Below, piece by piece: positions 87-40,547 of a stretch of DNA of 40,547 bases; position 1 is the stretch's first letter, and each line of letters begins with the position of its first letter. A program made the position numbers and the translations under genes. The DNA is from Escherichia phage MirsaeidiM_Esher2: sequence record PQ464628.1; one strand, given 5' to 3'. The notes below the pieces were generated by a model that saw only the letters and a list, made by a program, of their open reading frames with translations, was not told the origin of the DNA and searched no databases.

Positions 87-536
87 ATGCTCGAATTTTT
101 AAAGAGAGCGGCTCCGTGGTTACTTGCAGCAGTGATGTTTGCTGGTGGATACCACACCGCTAACAATAAGTGGGAGGCTAAGGTAAATGAAGAATACACC
201 TCGAATCTTAAGGCATCGGAAGATACAAGGCTCGCTGTCCAAGCTGAAGTCAACAAAGTGTCCAAACGGTTTCAGGACGAAATGTCCTCGCTGGAAGGCA
301 GCACTGATAGGATTATTGCTGACCTTCAGTCTGACAATAAGCGGCTGCGCATCCGAGTCAAACCAACTAGTGGAACCACGCAAAGTGACGGTCGATGCGT
401 CATTGATGGTTACGCCGAACTTGACGAACGAGATGCTAAACGTCTTATCGCCGTCGGAGTGAAAGGAGACAAGTGGATTAAGGCCCTTCAGGACACTGTG
501 AGAGCCTTACAGCAAGAGAAGGAGGTGACGCATTGA
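87..536 (+). CDS. 18.5: Rz-like i-spanin (T7 gp18.5 homolog)
   Basis: 149-aa ORF; SD GGGAGGG upstream; N-terminal TM segment ([14 protein letters not shown]) then charged helical region; sits between small and large terminase as in T7. Confidence 0.8.
187..462 (+). CDS. 18.7: Rz1-like o-spanin lipoprotein embedded in Rz (+1 frame)
   Basis: ORF entirely inside 87..536 in another frame; lipobox-like LTISG-C followed by Pro-containing C-terminus; true start codon uncertain. Confidence 0.6.
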   Translation: MKNTPRILRHRKIQGSLSKLKSTKCPNGFRTKCPRWKAALIGLLLTFSLTISGCASESNQLVEPRKVTVDASLMVTPNLTNEMLNVLSPSE

Positions 537-2296
537 GTAAAGACTTAGTGGCGCGTCAGGCGCTAATGACTGCCCGTATGAAGGCAGACTTCGTGTTCTT
601 CCTGTTCGTCCTGTGGAAAGCTCTGTCACTCCCGGTCCCGACTCGCTGTCAGATTGACATGGCGAAGAAACTATCGGCTGGTGACAACAGGCGTTTCATC
701 CTACAGGCGTTCCGTGGTATCGGGAAGTCCTTCATTACGTGTGCATTCGTGGTCTGGAAACTATGGAACAACCCAGACTTGAAGTTCATGATTGTGTCGG
801 CCTCAAAGGAACGAGCCGATGCGAACTCCATCTTCATCAAGCGAATCATCGACCTCATGCCTCAGCTTCGGGAACTCAAACCTAAGCAGGGGCAGCGAGA
901 TGCGGTTATCAGCTTCGACGTTGGACCAGCCAAGCCAGACCACTCACCTTCGGTTAAGTCCGTTGGTATCACTGGTCAGTTGACTGGTAGTCGTGCTGAC
1001 ATCCTGATTGCCGATGACGTGGAGGTTCCGAACAACTCAGCGACTCAGGCTGCCCGAGACCGTCTGTCAGAGCTTGTGAAAGAGTTCGACGCTATCCTGA
1101 AGCCGGGAGGTACAATCATCTATCTGGGTACTCCTCAGAACGAGATGACCTTGTATCGTGAGCTGGAAGGCCGTGGGTACACCACTACTATCTGGCCTGC
1201 TCGTTATCCACGCGACAGGAAGGACTGGCAGTCTTACGGCGACCGTCTGGCTCCTATACTTCAGGCAGAGCTTGAAGAGGACCCTGAGTCCTTCTACTGG
1301 CGTCCGACCGACGAGGTACGCTTCGATGATACGGACCTGAAGGAACGTGAGTTGTCATATGGCAAGGCTGGCTTCGCTCTACAGTTCATGCTTAACCCGA
1401 ACCTGAGTGATGCTGAGAAGTACCCTCTGAAGCTACGTGACCTTATCGTAGCCGACTTGGACCCAGCGTCTAGCCCAATGGTATACCAATGGCTTCCTAA
1501 CCCTCAGAACAAGCGTGAGGACGTTCCTAACGTTGGACTCATGGGTGACTCATACCACACGTATCAGACTGTAGGTTCTGCCTTCAGTTCGTACACCCAG
1601 AAGATTCTGGTCATTGACCCTAGTGGTCGTGGTAAAGATGAAACTGGTTATGCGGTACTGTACCAGCTCAACGGCTACATCTTCGCTATGGAAGTTGGCG
1701 GTATGCGAGGTGGCTATGAAGACTCTACGCTGGAAGCCTTGGCTAAGATTGGTCGTAAGTGGAAGGTCAACGAATACGTCATTGAGGGTAACTTCGGTGA
1801 TGGTATGTACCTTGAGCTATTCAAGCCTGTAGCGGCCCGTATTCATCCTGCTGCTGTAACTGAAGTGAAGAGTAAGGGTCAGAAGGAACTCCGCATCTGT
1901 GACGTTCTGGAGCCTATCATGGGGTCTCACCGACTTATCGTTAACGCTGCTGCTATCGTCCAAGACTACCAGTCAGCCTCTGATAAGGATGGTGTGCGTA
2001 ACCCTATCTACTCTCTCTTCTACCAGATGACCCGTATCTCTCGTGAACGTGGAGCATTGGCACACGATGACCGACTTGATGCGCTGGCTATCGGTGTACA
2101 GTTCTTCGTTGAGTCTATGGCGAAGGATGCCAACAAAGGCGAACGTGAAGTCACTGAGGAGTGGCTGGAAGAACAGATGGAGAACCCACGGAAAGGCTTC
2201 GAGTCCATCCACACGGAGTTCTGGGACAATGGGGTCCGGGTAACTCACGATACGGACGACGAGCTGGGACTAGGGTCCTACGTTACGTTCCACTAG
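533..2296 (+). CDS. 19: terminase large subunit (T7 gp19 homolog)
   Basis: 587 aa; colinear with T7 gp19 as recalled ([32 protein letters not shown]); TTG start at 533 overlapping the Rz stop (TTGA), SD GGAGG 7 nt upstream. Confidence 0.95.
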
Positions 2297-3064: not shown

Positions 3065-3265
3065 TCTCACAGTTCAAGAACCTCAAGTCTCCCCATAGGC
3101 CCTCTTTCAGTCCAGACCAAAGGCCCTACCCAAGTCTATCATAAGGTTAGACCGATGGTCAAGACTTCAGGTCAACGATAGGTCTAGGCTATGGCTTAGG
3201 GAAGGACGATAGGTGGTGACTATTGGTCTGTCTTTGAGTCTCTATCTGTATCAGACCTTGAGTCA
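3065..3265. repeat. candidate terminal-repeat region (collapsed single copy) with genome end near 3065
   Basis: Starts TCTCACAGT, as the T7 left end does (TCTCACAGTGTACGG, recalled); flanked on both sides by CCTACAGT repeat arrays; boundaries approximate. Confidence 0.3.
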
Positions 3266-3478: not shown

Positions 3479-3507
3479 TTGACTATAGGTCCAGACTATG
3501 GCCTAAT
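3479..3507 (+). promoter_or_regulatory. candidate sigma70 early promoter (A1-like)
   Basis: TTGACT at 3479..3484, 17-nt spacer, weak -10 CCTAAT at 3502..3507; resembles T7 A1 context (TTGACT...CCTATAGG) as recalled. Confidence 0.35.
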
Positions 3508-3789
3508 AGCTTCCGTCAACACGACACGGCAACAACCGGATAGTGAAGACGCCGGTGTCATCCCGGTTAAGTAGACAGCCTGATAAGTCATACGAACAAC
3601 AGGCAGATGACAATAAGGTAGTAAGGTCGCTGAGGGCTTCCACTTCAGCAGGTCGGAAAGGTCCTAAAACCTAACGAGAGTCTGACCAGCTCGCCAAGTC
3701 TGCCACTGAGGTGGATAACCAGAGGAGGCAACGTGTCGCCCACTGAGGGGCTACAGCTCACAGTTTAGGTTAACAGGCTAAACAAATGC

Positions 3790-5626: not shown

Positions 5627-5695
5627 AAGGTCTAAGACTCCAAGTGAAAGACCAAAGAGACTTTAAGTGAAAGACTAATAACAAGGACTTTAAGT

Positions 5696-8377
5696 ATGAG
5701 CATCATCTCTATTGATAAACACGACTTCTCTGATGTGTCTAACACCATTGAGCCGTTTAACCTGCTGGCTGACCACTACGGGCAAGACCTTGCAGTCAAG
5801 CAGCTTCAGCTTGAGCATGAGGCATACACTGAAGGCGAGCGACGTTTCATCAAGAACCTTGAGCGACAGACTGAGCGCGGGGAACTGGCAGACAATCAGG
5901 TCGCCAAGCCTTTGATGCAGACTCTTGTACCTAAGATTGCGCAAGCAGTCAAGGAGTGGCACGAAGGCCAAGACGGGAAGCTGTCAACCTCTCGTCCTAG
6001 CGTAGCGTTCACCATGTTGAGCACTGAAGAGAAGGCCGTCAAGGACCGCTCTATGCGCATCTCCTGTGAGTCCGCTGCGGTTATCATACTGAAGGTCATA
6101 CTCTCCAAGCTGGTCAAGCCCGAAGGGATACCGATTACACCTATGGCCTCCGCGATAGGTCGCACACTTGAGGACGAAATCCGCTTCGGTCGCATCCGTG
6201 ACAAAGAGAAAGAGCACTTCAAGAAGGCGATAGCTGATAACCTGAATAAGCGGGCCGGGGCGTCCTACAAGAAAGCCTACATGCAAGCGGTCGAGGCGTC
6301 CATGCTGGAGCAAGGCCAACTGGAAGATGCGTGGGGGACTTGGAGTCCTACAGAGGCTGTCCACGTTGGCATCAAGATGCTTGAGATTGTCATCCAGTCA
6401 ACACAACTGGTCGAGCTTAAGCGTTACGGTGCTGGCAATGCAGCGGCTGATGTCGAGATGGTCCACCTGTCAGACTTCTGGGTCAAGAAGATGGCACAAC
6501 GTGGATTCAGCCTTGCGGGTATCGCACCAGTCTATCAGCCTTGCGTCGTTCCACCTAAGCCGTGGACGGGTGTCGTAGGCGGTGGTTACTGGGCCAAAGG
6601 TCGCAGACCATTACCGCTGATTCGCTTAGGCTCTAAGTCTGCGGTAGCACGTTACGAAGACGTGTACATGCCTGAAGTCTATGAAGCTGTGAACATCATT
6701 CAGAATACACCTTGGAAAGTGAACAAGAAGGTTCTGGACGTGGTGAACATGGTCGAGAAGCTGAACAACACGCCTATTGATGACATCCCTCAGATGGAAC
6801 CGCTGAAGCCTGAGGACTATGCGGGTGAGACTGAGGAGGAACTCAAGGCATGGAAGAAAGCTGCTGCTGGTATCTATCGCCGCGAGAAGGCCAGACAGTC
6901 ACGCAGGTTGTCACTGAGCTTTATCGTTAACCAAGCGAACAAGTTCTCTCAGTTCAAGGCTATATGGTTCCCGTACAACATGGACTGGCGCGGTCGCGTC
7001 TACGCTGTGCCGATGTTCAACCCTCAGGGTAACGACATGCAGAAGGGTCTCCTGACTCTGGCAGTTGGCAAGCCTATTGGTGCTGACGGTTTCAAATGGC
7101 TAAAGGTACACGGTGCAAACTGCGCGGGTGTCGATAAAGTCACCTTCGAGGAGCGCATCAAGTGGGTGGAAGACAACCACGACAACATCATGGCTGCTGC
7201 TAAAGCACCTATGGACAGCATTGAGTGGTGGGGAAAGTTAGACTCTCCGTTCTGTTTCCTCGCGTTCTGCTTCGAGTATGCTGGCGTAATGCGCCATGGC
7301 CTGTCTTACTCCTGCTCGCTGCCGATAGCGTTCGATGGGTCCTGCTCTGGGATTCAGCACTTCAGCGCGATGCTTCGTGACCACATCGGTGGACATGCGG
7401 TAAACCTGACGCCTTCCGGTAAAGTCCAAGACATCTACCGCATCGTGTCCGACCGCATTGAGGAGGAGCTTAAAGTCCTGCTGGTTAACGGCACGGACAA
7501 CGAGATGGTAACTCACGAGGACAAGAAAACTGGTGAGATTACCGAGCGTCTCAAGCTGGGGACACGAGAGCTGGCCCGTCAGTGGCTGACCTACGGTATG
7601 TCACGCAAGGTTACTAAGCGCTCAGTCATGACTCTGGTCTACGGGTCGAAAGAGTACGGCTTCGCAGACCAAGTTTACGAGGACATCGTGATGCCCGCGA
7701 TTGACTCAGGGTCTGGCGCTATGTTCACCGAACCAAGCCAAGCGTCCCGCTTCATGGCTAAGATGATTTGGGAAGCTGTGAGCGTGACCGTAGTTGCTGC
7801 GGTAGACGCTATGAAGTGGCTTCAAGGTGCTGCCAAGCTGCTGGCTGCTGAAGTGAAAGACAAGAAGACTGGAGAAATCCTGAAGCCTTGCCTTCCGGTA
7901 CACTGGGTCACGCCTGATGGGTTCCCGGTCTGGCAGGAATACCGCAAGAAGGATACCACGCGTCTGAACCTGATGTTCTTAGGGTCATTCAACCTTCAGC
8001 CTACCGTCAACAAAGGCACGAAGAAAGAGCTGGATAAGCACAAGCAGGAGTCAGGCATTAGCCCGAACTTCGTCCACTCACAAGATGGTAGCCACCTCCG
8101 CAAGACTGTAGTCCATACTCACCGCAAGTATGGCGTGATGTCGTTCGCAGTGATTCACGATAGCTTCGGGACCATCCCGGCTGACGCTGAGTATCTGTTC
8201 CGTGGGGTCCGTGAGACTATGGTAGAGACCTACCGCGACAACGATGTGCTGCTTGACTTCTACGAGCAGTTTGAATACCAGCTTCACGAGAGCCAGCGCG
8301 ATAAGTTGCCAGAGCTTCCGAAGAAAGGTAAACTGAATATCGAAGACATCTTGTCTTCAGACTTTGCATTCGCCTAA
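5696..8377 (+). CDS. 1: single-subunit DNA-directed RNA polymerase (T7 gp1 homolog)
   Basis: 893 aa; colinear with recalled T7 RNAP (PFNLLADHYG, GRIRD, QPCVVPPKPWTG, DGSCSGIQHFSAM, HDSFGTIPADA, ending SDFAFA). Confidence 0.97.
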   Translation: MSIISIDKHDFSDVSNTIEPFNLLADHYGQDLAVKQLQLEHEAYTEGERRFIKNLERQTERGELADNQVAKPLMQTLVPKIAQAVKEWHEGQDGKLSTSRPSVAFTMLSTEEKAVKDRSMRISCESAAVIILKVILSKLVKPEGIPITPMASAIGRTLEDEIRFGRIRDKEKEHFKKAIADNLNKRAGASYKKAYMQAVEASMLEQGQLEDAWGTWSPTEAVHVGIKMLEIVIQSTQLVELKRYGAGNAAADVEMVHLSDFWVKKMAQRGFSLAGIAPVYQPCVVPPKPWTGVVGGGYWAKGRRPLPLIRLGSKSAVARYEDVYMPEVYEAVNIIQNTPWKVNKKVLDVVNMVEKLNNTPIDDIPQMEPLKPEDYAGETEEELKAWKKAAAGIYRREKARQSRRLSLSFIVNQANKFSQFKAIWFPYNMDWRGRVYAVPMFNPQGNDMQKGLLTLAVGKPIGADGFKWLKVHGANCAGVDKVTFEERIKWVEDNHDNIMAAAKAPMDSIEWWGKLDSPFCFLAFCFEYAGVMRHGLSYSCSLPIAFDGSCSGIQHFSAMLRDHIGGHAVNLTPSGKVQDIYRIVSDRIEEELKVLLVNGTDNEMVTHEDKKTGEITERLKLGTRELARQWLTYGMSRKVTKRSVMTLVYGSKEYGFADQVYEDIVMPAIDSGSGAMFTEPSQASRFMAKMIWEAVSVTVVAAVDAMKWLQGAAKLLAAEVKDKKTGEILKPCLPVHWVTPDGFPVWQEYRKKDTTRLNLMFLGSFNLQPTVNKGTKKELDKHKQESGISPNFVHSQDGSHLRKTVVHTHRKYGVMSFAVIHDSFGTIPADAEYLFRGVRETMVETYRDNDVLLDFYEQFEYQLHESQRDKLPELPKKGKLNIEDILSSDFAFA

Positions 8378-12820: not shown

Positions 12821-13274
12821 GGTTCAGTTCAACCCACGGTCCCGGACTGACGCTATCTTCGTTCACTGTTCGGCTACCAAGCCAGAGATGGACATCGGGG
12901 TAGAGACCATCCGTATGTGGCACAAGCAGCAAGGCTGGCTGGACGTAGGCTACCACTTTATCATCAAGCGCGATGGTACTGTGGAAGAGGGTCGCCCGGT
13001 CAATGTCGTAGGGTCACACGTTAAGGACTGGAACTCACGGTCTGTAGGCGTCTGCCTTGTAGGGGGAATTGACGCTAAGGGTCAGTTTGAAGCTAACTTC
13101 ACTCCAGCCCAGATGAACTCCCTGCGCAACAAGCTGGAGGAGCTTATGAGTAAGTACCCTAATGCAGAGCTAATGGCCCATCATTCAGTGGCAGCCAAAG
13201 CCTGTCCGAGTTTCGACGTGAAGCGATGGTGGACCAAGAATGAACTGGTTACATCTGACCGCGAATCAGTTTAG
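12807..13274 (+). CDS. 3.5: N-acetylmuramoyl-L-alanine amidase / lysozyme (T7 gp3.5 homolog)
   Basis: DAIFVHCSATKP, QGWLDVGYHFIIKRDGTVEEGR, AHHSVAAKACPSFDVKRWW match recalled T7 lysozyme. Confidence 0.95.
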   Translation: MMVSKVQFNPRSRTDAIFVHCSATKPEMDIGVETIRMWHKQQGWLDVGYHFIIKRDGTVEEGRPVNVVGSHVKDWNSRSVGVCLVGGIDAKGQFEANFTPAQMNSLRNKLEELMSKYPNAELMAHHSVAAKACPSFDVKRWWTKNELVTSDRESV

Positions 13275-13683
13275 TATCGACCCATCTAGTCCCTCAGGTC
13301 TATCCAGAAATGGTAAGCCTACTGGATGGGACGCTGGTAGATATTGGAGGACTAAGGTTAAAGGGAAGCCAGTAATGTGCCACGTCATAATCATGATGCT
13401 CAAAACTGGAGGTCCTCTACCAGATGGAATGGAAGTTGACCATATTGACCGTGACGGCCATAACAACAGGATTGACAACCTCAGGATTGTGACTAGGCAA
13501 GTCAACGTATGCAACACCAGCGTTAGGAAGGACTCAAAGTCTGGCATCAAGGGTGTAGCATACAGAGCTGGCAGAACTAAGCCTTATGTAGCACACAAGC
13601 AGCGCTTTGGAGAGAGGACGTCGAAGTCTTTCAAAACATCTAATGAAGCCATCGAATGGCTAGGAGAACAACCCAATGATTAA
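13240..13683 (+). CDS. 3.8: HNH endonuclease with AP2-like domain (T7 gp3.8 position)
   Basis: HNH motif EVDHIDRDGHNNRIDNLRIVTRQVN; downstream GIKGVAYRAGRTKPYVAHK (AP2-like); start overlaps the 3' end of the amidase gene by 35 nt. Confidence 0.8.
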   Translation: MNWLHLTANQFSIDPSSPSGLSRNGKPTGWDAGRYWRTKVKGKPVMCHVIIMMLKTGGPLPDGMEVDHIDRDGHNNRIDNLRIVTRQVNVCNTSVRKDSKSGIKGVAYRAGRTKPYVAHKQRFGERTSKSFKTSNEAIEWLGEQPND

Positions 13684-14146: not shown

Positions 14147-15850
<1,704 letters not shown>

Positions 15851-16112: not shown

Positions 16113-18284
16113 ATGTTTGACATTAAGAGTATCTGGGGTTCTGACATCGAGACCAACGGTCTCCTTGATACAGTCTCCCAGTTTCACTGTGGGGTCCTGA
16201 TTAACGCCGAGTCGAATGAGACCCTTAAGTACGGGGTAGCTCCGATGGTCGGTATCGTCGGTGGCTTCAAAGAGTATGTTCATAAAGTGGAAGAGATTGC
16301 CGCATCACCTGATGGTATGCTGGTATTCCATAACGGTATCAACTATGACGTCCCGGCTATAGACAAGCTGAAGCGTTTGTACTTTGGGAAACGCTTTAAC
16401 TTCCCGAAACATAAGATGATTGATACCTTGGTGCTGGGACGCTTGATGTATCCAAACATTAAGTTCTCAGACATGGGCGCAGTGAAAGCTGGTCGTCTTC
16501 CACCTAAGATGATGGGACGCCAGTCTCTTGAGGCTTGGGGCTATCGTCTCGGTGAGATGAAAGGTGAGTACAAACACGATTACGTTGCCAAGTGCAAGGC
16601 TGAAGGCATCGAATATAAGGCTGGGGACGAATGGTTGTTCCCGTCTCAGGAGATGCTGGACTATAACGTTCAAGACGTTGTGGTCACACTGGCGTTGTTC
16701 AAGAAGTTCCTGACTGACAAGTATTACTTCCAGTCTGAACAGTTCGCTTTCGAACAGATTTATGCGTTGCGTCTGGAACACGATGCTGCGTGGACCTGTG
16801 CGAAGATGGAGCGTAACGGCTATCCGATGAACACCGAGATGGTCGAAGGCTTATATCGTGAACTCACCGTCAAACGTGCGGAGCTGCTGGACAAGCTGCG
16901 TTCGACTTTCGGCAGCTGGTACGCACCAAAGGGAGGAAAGGAGTTCTTCAAGCACCCACGGACAGGCAAGGACCTTCCGAAGTATCCGAGAGTCGTGTAT
17001 CCTAAGGTCGGTGTCATCTTTAAGAAGCCGAAGAACAAAGCTCAACGCTTAGGTCTTGAACCTTGTGAACTCGATACGCGAGACACGATGGAGGGAGCAC
17101 CATTCACGCCAATCACTTACGTTGAGTTTAATCCGGGAAGCGGAGACCACTTAGCGAAAGTATTGATGGAGCGTGGCTGGGAGCCTGTGGACTTCACTGA
17201 CACAGGGAAACCTGTAGTCGATGACGAGACGTTGGAACACGTTAAGTTACCAGACGCAGAGGCTCAGGCTTGCGTAGAGCTGGTCCGTGAGTATCTGGTA
17301 GTCCAGAAGCGAATCGGTCAGGCGGCTGAAGGTAAGAACGCATGGTTGAAACTTGTAGGTCCAGACGGACGTATGCACGGTTCAATCAACCCTTGTGGAG
17401 CAGTAACCGGACGTGCGACCCATAGTTCACCAAACATGGCTCAGGTCCCGGCTAACGGTGCTCCGTATGGTGAGACTTGCCGTGGTGCTTTCGGTGCAGC
17501 GTGGAACAAGAAGGATGGCAAGCCAGACCCTTGGATTCAAGTAGGTGTGGATGCTTCAGGTCTTGAGCTTCGTTGTCTGGGGAACCGAGCGGCTCCGTTT
17601 GATGGTGGCGACTATGCGAAGACTGTGGTCGAAGGTGACATCCACTGGGCCAACGCAGTCAACGCTGGGTTAGCACCTAACGTCCCACGCGACAAGTCCA
17701 GCCACGACCACGATGCTTTCCGTAACAACGCCAAGACGTTCATCTATGCGTTTCTGTATGGTGCAGGTGCCGCTAAGATTGGACTGATTGTAGGCGGTGG
17801 TAAGAAGGAAGGCGCGGCCCTGATGAAGAAATTTATTGAGGGTACACCAGCTATCAAGGACCTGCGAGAGGCTGTCCAGAACACGCTCATCTCCGAGTCC
17901 AAGTGGGTAGATGGTGAGAACATCGTGAAGTGGAAACGCCGCTGGCTTAAAGGTCTGGACGGTCGACGCATTCACATCCGGTCTCCACACTCAGCACTTA
18001 ACGCCTTGCTTCAAGGTGATGGTGCGGTGGTCTGCAAGCACTGGATAGTCGAGACCGAGCGTATGCTCGAAGAGGCCGGGTATGTCCACGGCTGGGAAGG
18101 AGACTTCGCGTACATGGCTTGGGTCCACGATGAGCTACAGATTGCGTGTCGCACTCAGGAGATTGCCGAAGAAGTCGTCAAGATTGCTCAACTTGCTATG
18201 CGTAAGGTGGGCGAGTTCTATAACTTTAAATGTGTGTTAGACACGGAGGGTAAAATTGGACCAACGTGGAAAGAATGCCATTGA
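16113..18284 (+). CDS. 5: DNA polymerase (T7 gp5 homolog, family A)
   Basis: 723 aa; FHNGINYDVPA, AVTGRATHSSPNMAQ, NAKTFIYAFLYGAG, AYMAWVHDELQ, C-terminal GKIGPTWKECH match recalled T7 gp5. Confidence 0.97.
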   Translation: MFDIKSIWGSDIETNGLLDTVSQFHCGVLINAESNETLKYGVAPMVGIVGGFKEYVHKVEEIAASPDGMLVFHNGINYDVPAIDKLKRLYFGKRFNFPKHKMIDTLVLGRLMYPNIKFSDMGAVKAGRLPPKMMGRQSLEAWGYRLGEMKGEYKHDYVAKCKAEGIEYKAGDEWLFPSQEMLDYNVQDVVVTLALFKKFLTDKYYFQSEQFAFEQIYALRLEHDAAWTCAKMERNGYPMNTEMVEGLYRELTVKRAELLDKLRSTFGSWYAPKGGKEFFKHPRTGKDLPKYPRVVYPKVGVIFKKPKNKAQRLGLEPCELDTRDTMEGAPFTPITYVEFNPGSGDHLAKVLMERGWEPVDFTDTGKPVVDDETLEHVKLPDAEAQACVELVREYLVVQKRIGQAAEGKNAWLKLVGPDGRMHGSINPCGAVTGRATHSSPNMAQVPANGAPYGETCRGAFGAAWNKKDGKPDPWIQVGVDASGLELRCLGNRAAPFDGGDYAKTVVEGDIHWANAVNAGLAPNVPRDKSSHDHDAFRNNAKTFIYAFLYGAGAAKIGLIVGGGKKEGAALMKKFIEGTPAIKDLREAVQNTLISESKWVDGENIVKWKRRWLKGLDGRRIHIRSPHSALNALLQGDGAVVCKHWIVETERMLEEAGYVHGWEGDFAYMAWVHDELQIACRTQEIAEEVVKIAQLAMRKVGEFYNFKCVLDTEGKIGPTWKECH

Positions 18285-18654
18285 CGGAAAGTCCCTGCAT
18301 TTTACAGGCGCTGCGAGCGAGCTGTATGCAAGTTACCGACTGACATCTATTGGACACCAAGTCTTCCTACCAGCGTTCACCCAGTCCAAAGCGGACTTAG
18401 TGGTGGATATTAACGGGACCCTTAAGAGGGTTCAGGTGAAGACTGGGACCAAGCTGAAGAACTGCAATAGCATTCAGGTCCGACTCGGTGGGTGCGGAAA
18501 GCCCACCTACAGCCCGGGAGAGATTGACCTACTGGCTGTGGTCTATCAGGATAACTTCTGGCTGATTCCGTTCGTGGAAGAAGTGAGGCTTAAAACCTCC
18601 ATGTGTATAAACCTAACGTCCGACAAGAAGTACGGACACTTTAAACAGGAGTAA
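18256..18654 (+). CDS. hypothetical protein (132 aa), possible PD-(D/E)xK-like nuclease fold
   Basis: TTG start with GGAGGG 5 nt upstream, overlapping the end of gene 5; contains D-x(n)-QVK arrangement (ADLVVDINGTLKRVQVK); function is inference only. Confidence 0.5.
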   Translation: MDQRGKNAIDGKSLHFTGAASELYASYRLTSIGHQVFLPAFTQSKADLVVDINGTLKRVQVKTGTKLKNCNSIQVRLGGCGKPTYSPGEIDLLAVVYQDNFWLIPFVEEVRLKTSMCINLTSDKKYGHFKQE

Positions 18655-29021: not shown

Positions 29022-29483
29022 ATGTATATTCGCAAGGCTACGGATGTAGACGTTTGGTACGCTGCTGCACAACTTACAGATGACGACTTAGAGGAGTGTA
29101 AAGCCAACTACGGGACCACTGAAGGTCTCGCTGAAAGGATGCAAGCACACCTAACGTCTTCATCTGTGGTTTTGACTAACGCTACTGGGGACATTTACGC
29201 CTATGGAGGCAACCAAGGTGACAACGTTTGGTTCCTGACAACCAGAATGACCGAGCGTCTCCCACCTAAAGGTAAGCGAGAGTTCCGTGAGAGAGTAATG
29301 GAGTATCGTGACAAGATGCTGGAGGACTACCCGGTACTATGGAACTACGTCTGGGAAGGCAATGCGTCCCACATCCGGTTTCTCAAGTCAATAGGCGCTA
29401 AGTTCCACGACGATAAGTGGACCAGAAGTCCAGTGACTGGAGAAGTATTCATTCTATTCACAATCACCAAGGAGGACACGTGA
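29022..29483 (+). CDS. gp13-like internal virion/assembly protein (by position)
   Basis: 153 aa; SD AAGGAG; first gene after the phi13-like promoter. Confidence 0.65.
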
Positions 29484-29866
29484 CTAAGGTCTGTACCGTC
29501 TGTAAAATTGAAAAGCCACTAGAAGCGTTCTCTCCACGGAAAGACTCTAAGTGTGGTGTACGCTCTGCCTGTAAGCTGTGTCATAATGGACGGAGCCACA
29601 AGAACAAGGGATACGAGAAGTATCACATTACGCAGATAGAATATGATTCCATCCTAAAAGAGCAGGGCGGGGTCTGCGCAATCTGCAAGACATTAGGAAC
29701 TAGCCGAGGATTATGTGTTGACCACTGTCACACCTCCGGGAAAGTCCGAGGAATCCTATGTCATACCTGCAACCTAAAGCTGACCCGTAGAAACTACCAC
29801 TCTACATGCGAAGATTTCGATGGTAAGGCTGCTGAGTATCTGGCTACAAGCCGGAAGGGGGATTAG
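29480..29866 (+). CDS. endonuclease VII-like His-Me finger (HNH superfamily) nuclease
   Basis: Motif C-x2-C...[21 protein letters not shown] (endo VII signature) plus an N-terminal Cys cluster; no ATG in frame, GTG at 29480 with AAGGAGG 4 nt upstream overlaps the gp13 stop (GTGA); ORF track gives 29417. Confidence 0.7.
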
Positions 29867-35700: not shown

Positions 35701-36653
35701 GACGTCAAGGCTTCCTGTCTGACATCGTGGAGCATAGCCTGACTGGTAGTAAGCGTAAGTTCGATGACCGCTGGCTTAAGACCGCTGGTATCTCTGACGA
35801 GCAGTGGAAGGGCATTAAGTCCCTCATCCGTGAGTCAGTGACTCGTGGTCCAGACGGGAAGTACACCATCAAGGATAAGAAGGCGTTCAGTCAGGACCCA
35901 AGGGCTATGGACCTGTGGCGTATGGGTGACACCATCGCTGATGAAACGTTACTCCGTCCTCATAAGCTGTCCAACATGGACGCCAAGGCTTATGGTCCTA
36001 TCGCTAAGACTGTCCTTCAGTTTAAGAACTTCGTCATCAAGTCCATCAATGGGCGAACCATGCGTACCTTCTATAACGCCACGAAGAACAACCGAGCGAT
36101 TGACGCTGCACTATCGACCGTGATGTCTATGGGTCTGGCTGGTATCTACTACATGGCTCAGGCGCACGTCAAGGCTTATGCTATGCAGGATGGTCGAGAC
36201 CGTGACTACCTTAAGCAAGCTCTGGACCCGACGATGATTGGTTATGCGGCTCTGTCCCGTAGTTCACATCTGGGTGGCCCACTTGGGGTAGCTAACATTC
36301 TAGGTGGCATCGCTGGGTATGAGGACACTAAGATGCTCCGTTCGTCTATCCTACCTCGTTCGCCTACAGAGAAGCCTGAACGTGCCATCACGTTTGGTGC
36401 AGCTACAAGTGACCCTGTGATGAATGTTGTTGGTAACTTCTTGGAGCAGGTTCCAGCTTTCGGATATGCTGCTAACGTTGGCGTTTCTGCTTACAACTTG
36501 GCTGGCTACCTGAAGGCCGACACTCGGGTAAACGAGCGAGACTACATGACCGGGATGTATAACACCTTCCGTGAACTGGTTCCGAACGACCCGATTACTC
36601 AGAAGTTGCTACTGGGAACGTTTGAGGAGCAAGGTATCCACATCAAGGACTAA
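32757..36653 (+). CDS. 16: internal core protein (T7 gp16 homolog) with divergent N-terminal domain
   Basis: 1298 aa; central/C-terminal regions colinear with recalled T7 gp16 (NPAMFG, GTYVPHVYS, EARNLFDSD, RVNGDIAIM, MDLWR, AALSRSS); N-terminal ~120 aa lack the T7 SLT motif. Confidence 0.95.
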   Translation: MATRGIRNNNIGNIRVSKDQWEGATGDDGSFVTFDSPESGVRALAKNLQSYGRQGYDSIEKIINRWAPPSENATQSYIDSVVAATGIPATQSIDLTNPDVLASLSEAIGYHETGSRYDHEVYKTGVSRALSGAGGITPKTPPVSANVFDALTEGLKAKPKVALGENLPTAAGLNIEGQAPEAPNESFGEMFYKSTGETMQEREDRSTWFGFGSATEAEVKNSMVGVAIRAGQTEDSLDVIGDVFNPTRWNNHKWTREELDQIRNAGVLPQYYGVITGGSPQNLTELINLALDNQKLDQEKAKAGTGAQLAAGVIGAGVDPLTYVPIAGQIGKGGKLVNKMFTVAAQSGALAGVSEMARTSVAGGDAHVAEAILGGALFGGGMTAIADGLGRALGRNTNEFAGPATRLEARETSRNVDGQDLSRLPIQEGEETFSHQGVKFADVPNEPGSVRLEDGSILIGENPLNPKTRQVFDEVIEPERAAAGVNLGGLTEIGLKLLRSENPEIRGVAADLVRSPTGMQSGASGKIGTTASDVFERLRAVDHRFYNDIDDAVTEALKDPYFQTAFWRDSGAFRQDIYQRVSMAIEDGSGNLKAELTPGELKVYDLLKNQFDAKREMMENPAMFGRPDAQSIFPGSRFKGTYVPHVYSNQMKELYIKELGSTEALQEAIKKSWLTSYASRPEVKKRVDEALLEADPTLTPEGLAAAVDKYANDKAYGISHTEQFERSSVMEENINGLVGLENNSFLEARNLFDSDMSIVLPNGQTFSVNNLREWDMDKIVPAYNRRVNGDIAIMAGTGKTTKDMKDLVETMMNKAGDDGKLKGEVSTLRDTLKILTGRSRRDGADDAAFATVMRTMTDLSFFAKNAYMGVQNLTEIGGMLARGNVRAMLHGVPIFRDLAFRNKKVGASEIKDLHNVIFGKELDDSIRPSKQDVIDRLRSYSDLGRGTATALGTAKYYTGELAVRSPFTKVLNGTTNYLLDAGRQGFLSDIVEHSLTGSKRKFDDRWLKTAGISDEQWKGIKSLIRESVTRGPDGKYTIKDKKAFSQDPRAMDLWRMGDTIADETLLRPHKLSNMDAKAYGPIAKTVLQFKNFVIKSINGRTMRTFYNATKNNRAIDAALSTVMSMGLAGIYYMAQAHVKAYAMQDGRDRDYLKQALDPTMIGYAALSRSSHLGGPLGVANILGGIAGYEDTKMLRSSILPRSPTEKPERAITFGAATSDPVMNVVGNFLEQVPAFGYAANVGVSAYNLAGYLKADTRVNERDYMTGMYNTFRELVPNDPITQKLLLGTFEEQGIHIKD

Positions 36654-36671
36654 ACTATCACTATAGGAAAC
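36649..36671 (+). promoter_or_regulatory. phage-RNAP promoter (ACTAAACTATCACTATAGGAAAC)
   Basis: Consensus; gp16 stop TAA lies inside it; upstream of tailspike gene. Confidence 0.8.
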
Positions 36672-36717
36672 TGGAGGCGCTACCATAGGTCTCCGTTTAA
36701 ATAACAAAGGAGGCATA

Positions 36718-39700
36718 ATGTCCACGATTACACAATTCCCTTCAGGAAACACTCAGTACAGGATTGAGTTCGACTACCTAGCCAGAACGTTTGTTGTTGT
36801 TACGCTGGTGAATAGCTCTAACCCTACCCTGAACCGTGTACTGGAAGTTGGTCGAGATTACCGATTCCTTAATCCAACGATGATTGAGATGTTGGTTGAC
36901 CAATCAGGTTTCGACATCGTTCGTATTCACCGTCAGACTGGAACTGACTTAGTGGTAGACTTCAGGAATGGCTCAGTGTTGACAGCTAGTGACCTGACAA
37001 ATTCAGAGCTTCAGGCTATCCATATTGCAGAAGAAGGTCGAGACCAAACGGTTGACTTAGCGAAGGAATATGCCGATGCTGCTGGTAGCTCTGCTGGCAA
37101 CGCTAAGGATAGCGAGGACGAAGCACGCCGAATCGCTGAGAGTATCAGGGCAGCTGGTCTAATTGGCTATATGACCCGTCGCTCCTTCGAGAAAGGCTAC
37201 AACGTTACAACATGGAGCGAGGTCCTTCTATGGGAAGAGGATGGTGATTATTACCGCTGGGATGGTACGCTTCCAAAGAACGTTCCTGCTGGTTCAACTC
37301 CTGAAACTTCCGGTGGGATTGGATTAGGTGCGTGGGTTAGTGTTGGTGATGCTGCTTTAAGAAGTCAGATTTCAAACCCGGAAGGGGCAATACTCTACCC
37401 TGAATTACATAGAGCACGCTGGCTTGATGAAAAAGATGTTCGTGGTTGGGGTGCTAAAGGGGATGGTGTCACTGATGATACAGCAGCGTTAACGAGCGCA
37501 TTAAACGACACACCGGTTGGACAAAAGATTAATGGCAATGGGGGAACATATAAGGTCACATCCCTGCCTGACATTAGTAGATTCGTCAATACTCGTTTTG
37601 TATATGAACGTATTCCAGGTCAGCCGCTTTATTATGTCTCTGAAGAATTTGTTCAAGGTGAACTGTTTAAAATAACGGACACCCCTTATTACAATGCGTG
37701 GCCACAGGATAAAGCGTTCGTTTACGATGATGTTATTTACTGCCCGTTCATGGCTGGTGATAGACATGGGGTCAGTCGTCTGCATGTATCATGGGTTAAG
37801 TCTGGTGATGACGGTCAAACATGGTCTACTCCAGAGTGGTTAACTGATCTGCATCCAGATTACCCTACAGTGAACTATCATTGTATGAGTATGGGTGTAT
37901 GTCGCAACCGTCTGTTTGCCATGATTGAAACACGTACTTTAGCCAATAACGCATTAACCAATTGTGCATTGTGGGATCGCCCCATGTCTCGTAGCCTGCA
38001 TCTTACTGGTGGTATCACTAAAGCTGCAAATCAGCGATATGCAACAATACATGTACCAGACCACGGACTATTCGTGGGTGATTTTGTTAACTTCTCTAAT
38101 TCTGCGGTAACAGGTGTATCCGGTGATATGAATGTTGCAACCGTAATAGATAAGGACAACTTCACGGTTCTTACACCCAACCAGCAGACTTCAGATTTGA
38201 ATAACGCTGGAAAGAATTGGCACATGGGTACTTCTTTCCATAAGTCTCCATGGCGTAAGACAGACCTTGGGCTAATCCCTCGTGTCACAGAGGTGCATAG
38301 CTTTGCTACTATTGATAACAATGGCTTTGTTATGGGTTATCATCAAGGCGATGTAGCCCCACGCGAAGTTGGGCTTTTCTACTTCCCTGATGCTTTCAAT
38401 AGCCCATCTAGTTATGTTCGTCGTCAGATACCATCTGAGTATGAACCAGATGCGTCAGAGCCATGCATCAAGTACTATGACGGTGTATTATACCTTATCA
38501 CTCGTGGCACTCGTGGGGATAGACTAGGTAGCTCTTTGCATCGTAGTAGAGACATAGGTCAGACTTGGGAGTCACTGAGATTTCCACATAATGTTCATCA
38601 TACTACATTACCTTTTGCTAAAGTAGGGGATGACCTTATTATGTTTGGTTCAGAACGTGCAGAAAATGAATGGGAAGCAGGTGCACCCGATGATCGTTAC
38701 AAGGCATCTTATCCTCGCACCTTCTATGCACGCTTGAATGTAAACAATTGGAATGCAGATGATATTGAATGGGTTAACATCACTGACCAGATTTATCAGG
38801 GCGGAATAGTTAACTCAGGTGTAGGTGTTGGTTCGGTAGTTGTGAAGGATAATTACATCTACTACATGTTTGGTGGAGAGGACCATTTTAACCCATGGAC
38901 ATATGGAGATAACTCAGCGAAGGATCCCTTCAAATCAGATGGTCATCCCTCAGATTTGTATTGCTACAAAATGAAGATTGGCCCAAGCAATCATGTTTCC
39001 CGTGATTTCAGGTATGGTGCTGTACCTAACAGAGCTGTTCCCGTGTTTTTTGATACGAATGGGATTCGCACTGTTCCTGCGCCAATGGAATTTACAGGGG
39101 ATTTGGGTTTAGGGCATGTGACCATTAGAGCCAGCACCAGTAGTAACATTCGCTCTGAAGTTTTAATGGAAGGTGAATATGGGTTTATCGGGAAATCTAT
39201 ACCGACTGATAACCCGGCAGGGCAGCGCACCATATTTTGCGGGGGTGAAGGCACCAGTTCAACGACTGGCGCACAGATTACGCTTTATGGTGCAAATAAC
39301 ACCGACTCAAGGCGAATAGTTTACAATGGTGCTGAGCATCTGTTCCAGAACGCTGACGTTAAGCCTTATCTCGATAACGTGATTGCGCTTGGTGGACCAA
39401 GTAACCGTTTCACAACTGCATATCTCGGAAGCAACCCTATTGTTACTTCTAATGGGGAGAAGAAAACAGAGCCGGTAGTTTTTGATGATGCTTTCCTAGA
39501 TGCCTGGGGTGACGTTCACTACATCATGTATCAATGGTTAGATGCTGTTCAACTGAAAGGCAATGATGCTCGTATTCACTTCGGGGTTATTGCTCAGCAA
39601 ATTCGTGATGTATTCATTGCACACGGTCTGATGGATGAAAACAGTACGAATTGTCGTTATGCCGTTCTGTGCTATGACAAGTATCCACGGTTGACCGATA

Positions 39701-39912
39701 CGGTATTTTCGCACAATGAAATCATTGAACACACTGACGAGGAGGGTAATGTCACTACTACGGAAGAGCCTGTATTCACTGAGGTGGTTATCCATGAAGA
39801 GGGTGAGGAGTGGGGTGTTCGGCCTGACGGAATTTTCTTTGCTGAAGCCGCTTATCAGAGAAGAAAACTGGAAAGAATCGAAGCCAGACTTTCTGCTCTT
39901 GAACAGAAGTAA
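36718..39912 (+). CDS. 17: tailspike: gp17-type N-terminal adaptor + endosialidase catalytic domain + C-terminal intramolecular chaperone domain
   Basis: 1064 aa; N-terminus EFDYLARTFVVVTL like T7 gp17; Asp-boxes SGDDGQTW (37801..37824) and SRDIGQTW (38545..38568); overall matches recalled K1F endosialidase; AT-richer than flanking genes. Confidence 0.93.
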   Translation: MSTITQFPSGNTQYRIEFDYLARTFVVVTLVNSSNPTLNRVLEVGRDYRFLNPTMIEMLVDQSGFDIVRIHRQTGTDLVVDFRNGSVLTASDLTNSELQAIHIAEEGRDQTVDLAKEYADAAGSSAGNAKDSEDEARRIAESIRAAGLIGYMTRRSFEKGYNVTTWSEVLLWEEDGDYYRWDGTLPKNVPAGSTPETSGGIGLGAWVSVGDAALRSQISNPEGAILYPELHRARWLDEKDVRGWGAKGDGVTDDTAALTSALNDTPVGQKINGNGGTYKVTSLPDISRFVNTRFVYERIPGQPLYYVSEEFVQGELFKITDTPYYNAWPQDKAFVYDDVIYCPFMAGDRHGVSRLHVSWVKSGDDGQTWSTPEWLTDLHPDYPTVNYHCMSMGVCRNRLFAMIETRTLANNALTNCALWDRPMSRSLHLTGGITKAANQRYATIHVPDHGLFVGDFVNFSNSAVTGVSGDMNVATVIDKDNFTVLTPNQQTSDLNNAGKNWHMGTSFHKSPWRKTDLGLIPRVTEVHSFATIDNNGFVMGYHQGDVAPREVGLFYFPDAFNSPSSYVRRQIPSEYEPDASEPCIKYYDGVLYLITRGTRGDRLGSSLHRSRDIGQTWESLRFPHNVHHTTLPFAKVGDDLIMFGSERAENEWEAGAPDDRYKASYPRTFYARLNVNNWNADDIEWVNITDQIYQGGIVNSGVGVGSVVVKDNYIYYMFGGEDHFNPWTYGDNSAKDPFKSDGHPSDLYCYKMKIGPSNHVSRDFRYGAVPNRAVPVFFDTNGIRTVPAPMEFTGDLGLGHVTIRASTSSNIRSEVLMEGEYGFIGKSIPTDNPAGQRTIFCGGEGTSSTTGAQITLYGANNTDSRRIVYNGAEHLFQNADVKPYLDNVIALGGPSNRFTTAYLGSNPIVTSNGEKKTEPVVFDDAFLDAWGDVHYIMYQWLDAVQLKGNDARIHFGVIAQQIRDVFIAHGLMDENSTNCRYAVLCYDKYPRLTDTVFSHNEIIEHTDEEGNVTTTEEPVFTEVVIHEEGEEWGVRPDGIFFAEAAYQRRKLERIEARLSALEQK

Positions 39913-40022
39913 TAAACAAAACCCTTTGCCATTAAGTTGTGGAGGTAGAGGATAACTACACGCTAACCAACGTATGGTAACAACTTTGGGTCACGGACGA
40001 CCCGCTTTAAACTGGAGGTTTT

Positions 40023-40217
40023 ATGATTGAGTTAGACTTCAAGAATGAGGTCCTTAAAGCCTCTCCTATCGTCGGGACCGCTGCGGCTGATGGTGCCAGT
40101 CGGTTCTTCTTCGGACTTACACTGAACGAATGGTTCTACGTTGCAGCTATAGCGTACACCGTTGTCCAGATTGGTGTGCTAGTCTACAAAACGATTAAAG
40201 GAGGTGGTAAAACATGA
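40023..40217 (+). CDS. 17.5: class II holin (T7 gp17.5 homolog)
   Basis: 64 aa; APIVGTAAADGASRFFFGLTLNEWFYVAAIAYTVVQIG matches recalled T7 holin; SD GGAGG. Confidence 0.85.
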   Translation: MIELDFKNEVLKASPIVGTAAADGASRFFFGLTLNEWFYVAAIAYTVVQIGVLVYKTIKGGGKT

Positions 40218-40477
40218 CGCAGATGGACTTAGAGAAGTTCCTCTTAATTCTGGATACTGAACGTGCTCGACTCATGCTGCAAGACCTGCGGGATGACACT
40301 AAGCGTTCACCTCAGCTTTACAACGCCATCGAGAAGCTACTGGCTCGTCACAACTTTGTGCTAAGCAAGGTGTCAGTTGACGAGAAGACGCTCGCTGATA
40401 TGGAGGCCCTGAACGCAGAGTATGATAAGGTGCTTTCAGCGACTGAGGATAATGACACAGGGTATGGTGTTCAATAA
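40214..40477 (+). CDS. 18: terminase small subunit / DNA maturation protein (T7 gp18 homolog)
   Basis: 87 aa; RSPQLYNAIEKLLARH matches recalled T7 gp18; ATG overlaps holin stop; SD AGGAGG. Confidence 0.85.
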   Translation: MTQMDLEKFLLILDTERARLMLQDLRDDTKRSPQLYNAIEKLLARHNFVLSKVSVDEKTLADMEALNAEYDKVLSATEDNDTGYGVQ

Positions 40478-40528
40478 GTGTTAGACTCAAGGTCATTACT
40501 ATATGTAGTGGCCTTTATGGTTAACACT
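40477..40528 (+). promoter_or_regulatory. RNase III-type hairpin candidate upstream of Rz (R18.5-like)
   Basis: Lower stem AGTGTTA 40477..40483 / TAACACT 40522..40528; upper stem AGGTCA 40490..40495 / TGGCCT 40509..40514; 13-nt loop. Confidence 0.5.
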
Positions 40529-40547
40529 AACTAGTGGAGGAGACTCT
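40493..40547. repeat. 55-nt duplicate of window positions 1..55 (circular assembly overlap)
   Basis: Exact identity read directly. Confidence 0.95.

Follow-up and report, generated by a model that had tools for sequence, protein, structure and literature searches.

We conclude with high confidence that gene 17 of Escherichia phage MirsaeidiM_Esher2 (36718 to 39912, plus strand) encodes a K1F-type endosialidase tailspike in which an AT-rich, exchangeable receptor-binding cassette sits in a Kayfunavirus backbone. The window, that is, the whole stretch of 40,547 nucleotides that was analyzed (PQ464628.1), is a complete Kayfunavirus genome in circularly permuted form. K1F-like phages are 94 to 95% identical to its first 25 kb over 90 to 93% (about 90%), and the blocks of the K1F genome are collinear with the window throughout, placing it among the K1F-like Studiervirinae (Kayfunavirus); outside gene 17, the window differs from the K1F genome by several small insertions and replacements. 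The gene, recognized as an open reading frame and by its identity to K1F gp17, specifies a tailspike precursor of 1,064 amino acids. Coliphage K1F gp17 (endoNF, an endo-N-acetylneuraminidase) has the same length (1,064 aa), genomic position, and domain order, and is 97.3% identical at the amino acid level and 96.5% identical at the nucleotide level. The 29 amino acid differences leave H350, E581, R596, R647, S911, and K916 unchanged. Nucleotide divergence is 3.5% overall and uneven, amounting to about 1.4% in codons 1 to 245 versus 3 to 8% in the enzyme segments. Crystal structures of K1F gp17 are available (PDB 1V0E/1V0F, 3GVJ-L, and 3JU4), as is one of its chaperone domain (3GW6).

The N-terminal portion is a backbone anchor module (codons 1 to 174; 36718 to 37239, plus strand), delimited by Pfam and PDB matches and by identity to other Kayfunavirus genomes. 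Its DNA is 92 to 97% identical to that of Kayfunaviruses with unrelated C-termini, a group of at least 130 Kayfunavirus records. Within the anchor lies a T7 gp17-type tail-attachment domain (codons 10 to 115; 36745 to 37062, plus strand), homologous to T7 gp17 residues ~1 to 150. It matches Pfam PF03906 with a score exceeding the gathering threshold (E = 1.2e-15), PDB 7boz (residues 6 to 116, E = 1e-15), 8dsp, and 8e4g, so that the T7-type fiber N-terminus of the original prediction is confirmed. The T7 gp17 tail fiber and gene 17 have this domain in common and part company after it: in T7, what comes next is a coiled-coil shaft and then a tip that binds LPS, whereas gene 17 continues into a Tail_spike_N domain and an enzyme.

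That enzyme is the mature catalytic endosialidase (codons 246 to 910; 37453 to 39447, plus strand), which aligns with PDB 1v0e and 3gvl over residues 245 to 910 (E = 0) and matches Pfam families PF12218 (E = 2e-37), PF12217 (2e-221), PF12195 (7e-47), and PF12219 (2e-78). It consists of an N-terminal extension (residues 246 to 312), a six-bladed beta-propeller (313 to 754) with a beta-barrel insert (424 to 506), and a stalk (757 to 910), reproducing the endoNF-type architecture of extension, propeller with inserted barrel, and triple-beta-helix stalk. The active-site residues of endoNF, which we take from the K1F structural papers to be Glu581, Arg596, and Arg647, plus His350, are identical in a gap-free alignment of gene 17 with K1F. 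The C-terminal part is 97% identical to the crystallized K1F endosialidase, in agreement with the earlier suggestion of a capsule depolymerase, and from this identity the product is predicted to cleave alpha-2,8-linked polysialic acid, the K1 capsule. A C-terminal intramolecular chaperone domain follows (codons 911 to 1064; 39448 to 39909, plus strand), identified by PDB 3gw6 (matching 790 to 1064), Pfam Peptidase_S74 (PF13884 at 914 to 971), and the K1F gp17-CTD annotation. It keeps the Ser911/Lys916 self-cleavage dyad (K1F numbering), with an R915K substitution adjacent.

Gene 17 is set apart from the rest of the genome by its codon usage. The GC content of codons 246 to 1064 is 44.4%, versus 51.3% in all other genes and 52.4% in gene 16. 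The GC3 of the gene (0.385) is the lowest among 34 genes, the next lowest being 0.483 and the pooled value for the others 0.563. Relative to the expectation from its amino acid sequence and the codon usage of the genome, gene 17 is short by 205 G/C (z = -13.0; other genes, -3.6 to +4.85), a deviation beyond what amino acid content explains. A GC3 change-point scan of genes 15 to 17 gave a log-likelihood ratio (LLR) of 41.6, matched by none of 500 shuffles. Moreover, no other 2.7-kb stretch of the genome is as AT-rich as the cassette (minimum GC of 44.3% versus 46.1% for the next nonoverlapping stretch, in the early region), and the genes that flank it (16, 17.5, 18, and 19) are normal in codon usage. 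The AT-richness relative to neighboring genes that had been claimed from spot counts is thus real. All four counts proved correct on recounting (33.3% at 38581, 46.7% at 38641, 40.0% at 38761, and 55.0% at 34201), and they prove little alone because the binomial standard deviation of one 60-nt line is about 6.5%. The contrast is more a gradient than a clean step, as the anchor itself is mildly AT-shifted (codon residual z = -2.55).

The exchangeable cassette (37241 to 39924, plus strand; GC 44.6%, GC3 of about 0.37), as defined by homology to foreign phages, is shared, at 78 to 93% identity in DNA, by five phage lineages that are unrelated and differ in the N-terminus to which it is joined: the siphovirus IME207, the Ackermannviridae myovirus YX22, the 116-kb myovirus IME392, the N4-like UE-S5a, and the SP6-like K1-5. 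This recurrence establishes transfer without recourse to composition. Across the six lineages that include Kayfunavirus, cassette GC3 is 0.33 to 0.43 versus 0.37 to 0.60 for the respective backgrounds, and the AT-rich composition goes with the cassette and not with genome position. Cassette GC3 fits best the low-GC3 backgrounds of UE-S5a (0.37), K1-5 (0.41), and IME392 (0.45), a fit that singles out no donor. The tailspikes of Gamaleyavirus UE-S5a, YX22, IME392, and IME207 have both the catalytic cassette and the chaperone domain at the DNA level; K1-5 gp47 (Vectrevirus) has the same catalytic cassette and is the only one without the same chaperone domain at that level. Their N-terminal parts range from a short adapter-binding peptide in K1-5 to 389 aa in UE-S5a, with 86 to 133 aa in the rest. 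The phi92 endoN92 (PDB 4HIZ) was grouped with the other K1-phage endosialidases. A search of E. coli chromosomes for a source of the cassette returned only distant prophage endosialidases (14% of the query aligned, at 72% identity). An anchor joined to a cassette that recurs in five unrelated lineages supports the mosaic origin originally proposed. This conclusion is already in the literature for this tailspike (PMC6872550), and the mosaic reading has been published for about 20 years; it is a textbook case and not a discovery. Recombination is the presumed mechanism; the direction and timing of the transfer, too, can only be presumed.

Other members of the genus carry different modules at the same locus. 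The tailspikes of Vec13, PE3-1, ST31, LS2, PH1061, Salmonella phage CHRF_10022, and PM129 have other specificities and unrelated C-terminal modules, although the backbone is identical and both the first 211 to 255 codons and the downstream backbone, from 39936 onward, match. PDB 9VVR, which is also 843 aa, probably belongs with these tailspikes. The C-modules at this position in eight further Kayfunaviruses, which represent seven distinct cassette types, have GC3 values of 0.315 to 0.40, with the exception of LS2 (0.695); Enterobacter phage vB_Ecl_MII_004, whose annotation is broken up by apparent frameshifts, was for that reason left out of this comparison of composition. In some of the non-K1 tailspikes, the 3' end of the endosialidase persists as decaying remnants. 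The PM129, 22664UKE3-2, ZG49, and Vec13 types, with unrelated tailspike modules and the same left junction (window positions 37476 to 37483), have nested, frameshifted 3' remnants of the chaperone domain just past their own stop codons. We consider the chances about even that the gene 17 locus is a fixed-arm cassette-exchange site of which a K1F-type endosialidase was the ancestral occupant for several non-K1 lineages.

The AT-rich third positions of nearly all cassettes suggest either a common low-GC pan-phage pool or selection for such codons. Taken without any transfer, the second possibility, that AT-rich synonymous codons are selected or position dependent in tailspikes (e.g., for slow translation during trimer folding or for expression level), seems unlikely to us. 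Seven of eight distinct non-endosialidase Kayfunavirus C-modules fall between 0.315 and 0.40, all three other YX22 tailspikes have GC3 values of 0.32 to 0.35 versus a background of 0.60, and the conserved anchor too is mildly AT-shifted, all as this explanation would have it. However, the LS2 module occupies that very locus with a GC3 of 0.695, the flanking genes are normal in codon usage, and it is the same DNA, not just the same bias, that recurs in unrelated phages. As nearly all examined cassettes are AT-rich at third positions, selection could contribute besides ancestry.

The limits of a transferred cassette can be drawn from homology. Foreign homology starts at 37241 (IME207), 37282 (YX22), 37329 (IME392), 37434 (UE-S5a), and 37580 (K1-5), and Kayfunavirus homology stops at 37350 to 37483 (gene nucleotides 633 to 766), beyond which the tailspikes are unrelated. 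Where the two overlap is a crossover zone (codons ~175 to 255; 37241 to 37483, plus strand) made up of the C-terminal half of Tail_spike_N (Pfam PF18668, codons 156 to 211), a linker, and the sequence WGAKGDGVTDD, with which the enzyme starts. This zone is homologous to both Kayfunavirus tailspikes and foreign endosialidase genes and is also 75 to 78% identical to other YX22 tailspikes and the UE-S5a K5 lyase; the AT-rich codon usage starts there. At the other end, foreign homology ceases at 39924 to 39951, 12 to 39 nt past the stop codon. The 3' junction lies at 39925 to 39935 (plus strand), between the end of IME207 and YX22 homology at 39924 and the resumption of the Kayfunavirus backbone at 39936, beyond which the codon usage of the genes is normal again.

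The 5' junction cannot be placed from composition alone, because scans made blind within gene 17 were nonsignificant: a raw-GC change-point had an LLR of 2.2, matched by 224 of 500 codon shuffles, and a GC3 change-point at codon 189 was matched by 87 of 500 shuffles. Steps were tested at codons 175 and 246, boundaries set independently by homology. At codon 175 (window position ~37240), coincident with the start of IME207 homology at 37241, GC3 drops from 0.477 to 0.367 (Fisher p = 0.008), and the codon residual shifts as well (Welch p = 0.004). The step at codon 246 was not significant (p = 0.26 for GC3 and 0.18 for the codon residual). Codons 175 to 245 are already AT-rich in codon usage (residual z = -5.2), and their raw GC seems high because codons 131 to 245 encode an Ala/Gly/Arg-rich segment (GC2 = 0.52; raw GC of about 50%). 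Of the break predicted at about codon 230, the AT shift stands and the position does not: composition and homology jointly put the boundary about 50 codons farther upstream, within the common Tail_spike_N linker and not where the catalytic domain begins.

Over genes 15 to 17, the top-ranked GC3 change-point is close to the 5' end of gene 17 (window position 36837), which, with the nonsignificant blind tests, is what would be expected if the entire gene, anchor included, were foreign to the backbone and lacked an internal break. We regard this as very improbable, given an anchor common to so many Kayfunavirus records with unrelated C-termini, its small codon deviation (z = -2.6 versus -13), and the significant step at the homology-defined codon 175 (p = 0.004 to 0.008). 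It is scarcely credible that the low GC reflects the amino acids in which a beta-propeller/beta-helix protein is rich (Asn, Tyr, Lys, Ile, and Phe) and not foreign origin, for although amino acid content shapes raw GC and masks the codon-usage shift in codons 131 to 245, GC1 and GC2 of codons 246 to 1064 (0.537 and 0.420) are near those of the genome (0.577 and 0.400) while GC3 drops from 0.563 to 0.376, and a z of -13 after amino acid conditioning largely refutes the idea.

Under the favored reading of an acquired cassette on a backbone anchor, the segment from ~37241 to 39924 lies between a 5' arm (Tail_spike_N and linker, with crossovers at 37241 to 37483) and a 3' junction placed 12 to 24 nt beyond the stop codon, and it moves among unrelated phages with its codon usage preserved. 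The promoter and ribosome-binding site for gene 17 would be those of the backbone. Just 5' of the gene, the backbone DNA contains a phage-RNA-polymerase promoter-like motif, CTATCACTATAGGAAA (36655 to 36670, plus strand), of which there are 10 copies on the plus strand versus 0.03 expected; next come a ribosome-binding site, AAGGAGG, and the ATG at 36718. A scan of 36400 to 40547 for sigma-70 promoters and intrinsic terminators gave counts equal to the shuffle expectation and was uninformative. By analogy with K1F, in which this mode of action is established, and given the 97% identity, the homotrimer would join the tail via the T7 gp17-type N-terminal anchor, and the beta-propeller active site would cut the alpha-2,8-polysialic acid capsule of E. 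coli K1, while the beta-barrel and stalk would hold the polymer. The C-terminal chaperone domain would drive trimer folding and then cleave itself off at Ser911.

For a T7-type anchor joined to an acquired capsule depolymerase, K1F gp17 is the classic example, and the discovery value of the present case is small. It serves as a calibration: spot counts of raw GC picked out the correct gene and the correct account, with a junction off by about 50 codons, and amino-acid-controlled codon usage with homology breakpoints places that junction in the Tail_spike_N linker. The arms at 37241 to 37483 and 39924 to 39936 are natural splice points for host-range swaps in K1F-like therapeutic phages. As for the isolation hosts of the closest relatives, PhiNW-B1 was isolated on E. 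coli K1 and vB_EcoP_F on a strain of serotype O18ac:K1:H7.

The finding is contained in a single ORF, gene 17 (36718..39912, + strand, 1064 codons), whose product gives a gap-free alignment with gp17 of coliphage K1F (96.5% nucleotide and 97.3% amino acid identity, 29 substitutions). Residues 245-910 match the crystallised endosialidase endoNF (PDB 1v0e and 3gvl; E = 0), and residues 790-1064 match the crystallised C-terminal chaperone domain (PDB 3gw6). A Pfam search of the product returned the full architecture of seven domains: Phage_T7_tail (residues 10-115), Tail_spike_N (156-211), End_N_terminal (246-312), End_beta_propel (313-754) with the End_beta_barrel insert (424-506), End_tail_spike (757-910), and Peptidase_S74 (914-971). 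In the K1F record, the corresponding gene is annotated as coding for an endosialidase precursor that matures by release of the C-terminal intramolecular chaperone domain. H350, E581, R596, R647, S911, and K916, whose functional roles come from the K1F structural literature, are identical to K1F in the alignment. Given this near-identity, the mechanism established for K1F probably applies here: the T7-type anchor would dock the trimeric spike on the tail, the beta-propeller would depolymerise the K1 polysialic acid capsule so that the phage reaches the outer membrane, and the chaperone domain would nucleate folding of the triple-beta-helix stalk before being freed by self-cleavage at Ser911.

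The original prediction was that this gene turns AT-rich from about codon 230. The four 60-nt GC counts behind it were exact on recount; single counts of this length carry little weight because their sampling SD is ~6.5%. In aggregate, the AT-richness is borne out strongly and far beyond chance. GC content is 44.4% in codons 246-1064 versus 51.3% in all other genes, and the GC3 of gene 17 (0.385) is the lowest of 34 genes (next lowest, 0.483; pooled, 0.563). Scanning genes 15-17 for a GC3 change-point gave an LLR of 41.6, compared to 12.3 for the best of 500 shuffles. When amino acid content and the synonymous codon preferences of the genome are controlled for, gene 17 falls 205 G/C below expectation (residual z = -13.0), whereas all other genes lie between -3.6 and +4.85. 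By raw GC, no other 2.7-kb stretch of the genome is as AT-rich, but the margin is narrow (44.3% versus 46.1% in the early region).

The predicted position of the break failed in both blind scans and boundary tests. Within gene 17, blind change-points were matched by 224/500 codon shuffles for raw GC and by 87/500 shuffles for GC3 (codon 189); the best single break in the three-gene scan is at 36837, near the gene start. The profile has two steps: a mild AT shift in codons 1-174 (residual -0.095 per codon, z = -2.6), which triples from about codon 175 (-0.21 per codon, z = -13). One of the strongest shifts falls in codons 175-245 (residual -0.30, z = -5.2). Their raw GC is ~50% only because the wider region of codons 131-245 is Ala/Gly/Arg rich (GC2 = 0.52), and this high raw GC led to a break placed too far downstream. 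For boundaries derived from homology, independently of composition, the step is significant at codon 175, both in GC3 (0.477 versus 0.367; p = 0.008, Fisher) and in the codon residual (p = 0.004, Welch), and not at codon 246 (p = 0.26 and 0.18). The AT shift is real, its onset was misplaced, and composition alone cannot resolve the break.

The proposal that the gene is a mosaic is supported, as its two parts are shared with disjoint sets of relatives. The 5' part matches other Kayfunaviruses (hosts: E. coli O-types, Salmonella Typhi, Klebsiella, Enterobacter, and Providencia) at 92-97%; this match stops abruptly, at gene nt 587, 633-636, 645-654, 735, or 759-766. By pairwise BLAST, this backbone homology ends at 37350-37483 and resumes at 39936 (39978 in LS2). 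The rest of the gene occurs in five unrelated lineages: the Shuimuvirus siphovirus IME207 (from 37241, 92.9% nucleotide identity), the Ackermannviridae phage YX22 (from 37282, 81.5%), the 116-kb myovirus IME392 (from 37329, 77.8%), the N4-like Gamaleyavirus UE-S5a (from 37434, 82.5%), and the SP6-like phage K1-5 (from 37580, 82.3%). Foreign homology ends at 39924-39951, 12-39 nt past the stop codon, except in K1-5, where DNA homology stops at 39449, within the stalk region. The 3' alignment has a common TAATAAACAAAACCC tail, after which the window switches to Kayfunavirus backbone. These start and end points delimit an exchangeable cassette of about 37241-39924. Both sets are homologous to the 240-nt zone (37241-37483) in which the 5' crossovers fall; it comprises the C-terminal half of Tail_spike_N, a linker, and the WGAKGDGVTDD motif. 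The zone also shares 75-78% identity with other YX22 tailspikes and with the UE-S5a K5 lyase; such a generic connector would be suited to act as a recombination arm.

Composition moves along with the cassette in the six phages compared. Its GC3 is 0.376 in this window (background, 0.564), 0.382 in IME207 (0.487), 0.426 in YX22 (0.597), 0.434 in IME392 (0.449), 0.412 in UE-S5a (0.373), and 0.326 in K1-5 (0.412), so that it is conspicuous only against GC-rich backgrounds. Other Kayfunaviruses, with GC3 of 0.50-0.60 in genes 16 and 19, carry at the same position C-modules that each have their own composition: Vec13 (0.390), PE3-1 (0.402), CHRF_10022 (0.354), PH1061 (0.315), ST31 (0.335), PM129 (0.361), ZG49 (0.349), and LS2 (0.695). 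With AT-rich modules predominating among those examined, a common reservoir of low-GC cassettes, or a degree of selection on tailspike codons, may contribute. The value for LS2, at the same genomic position, speaks against codon usage set purely by position or expression level. In composition, the LS2 module (5636-7700 of its record, L013; 57.6% GC) runs counter to every other cassette examined.

In several Kayfunaviruses whose tailspikes are unrelated, fragments of the endosialidase 3' end persist immediately past the tailspike stop codon. These remnants are nested, partly frameshifted, and derived from the 3' end of the chaperone domain (39699-39935). PM129 keeps 214 nt of endosialidase coding sequence, frameshifted and contiguous with backbone (L015 5910-6146), in a block 96.4% identical to 39699-40547. 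The final 49 nt are kept in 22664UKE3-2, 40 nt in ZG49 (L016 6752-6791), and 51 nt in Vec13 (L007 7040-7090), UFJF_EcSW4, and pO2; in the Kayfunavirus record L017, the remnant spans 3501-3572. All share a left junction at 37476-37483. On the simplest reading, a K1F-type endosialidase would have been replaced in situ by the cassettes that these phages now carry, and the K1F arrangement would have served both as a recipient and, at a later stage, as a scaffold for exchange.

The mosaic itself is the published picture of K1F and already known; the same endosialidase domain has been noted in K1-5 and myovirus phi92 (PMC6872550). What we add is detail: exact junction coordinates, placement of the compositional boundary in the Tail_spike_N linker instead of the enzyme start, and further carrier lineages now in databases. 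A prophage tailspike annotated as endosialidase occurs in 184/5426 complete E. coli genomes, and is only distantly related to the cassette (~72% identity over 14% of the query).

The entire window represents a K1F-like Kayfunavirus genome, collinear with K1F and, over ~90% of its first 25 kb, 94-95% identical to vB_EcoP_F, PhiNW-B1, and related phages. It is circularly permuted: terminase gene 19 lies at 533..2296, and the K1F terminal repeat maps once, at 3065-3242. Positions 1-55 and 40493-40547 are identical (exactly 55 nt, not 56), a circular-assembly overlap that gives a true length of 40,492 bp. A CTATCACTATAGG-type motif occurs ten times, always on the + strand (2397, 5610, 8688, 10326, 11390, 20594, 23433, 24432, 28976, and 36655; 0.03 expected by chance), and these copies look like the phage RNA polymerase promoters. 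One (36655-36670) lies directly 5' of gene 17, which is also preceded by a strong ribosome-binding site; as both are in backbone DNA, an incoming cassette would need no expression signals of its own.

Three small endonuclease-type ORFs (13240-13683, 18256-18654, and 29417-29866; HNH, PD-(D/E)XK, and endonuclease VII) lie in segments without counterpart at those places in K1F and probably represent mobile homing-endonuclease genes; in codon-usage deviation, the HNH ORF ranks second in the genome (z = -3.6). The K1F DNA polymerase gene is annotated as two joined pieces around a 600-nt insert with gp5.3 (K1F 14931-15531), which the window lacks (18127-18129), leaving an unbroken polymerase ORF of 723 codons (16113-18284). 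The RNA polymerase gene (5696-8377) has the highest GC3 (0.645; amino-acid-controlled z = +4.85) and is a compositional outlier in the direction opposite to gene 17.
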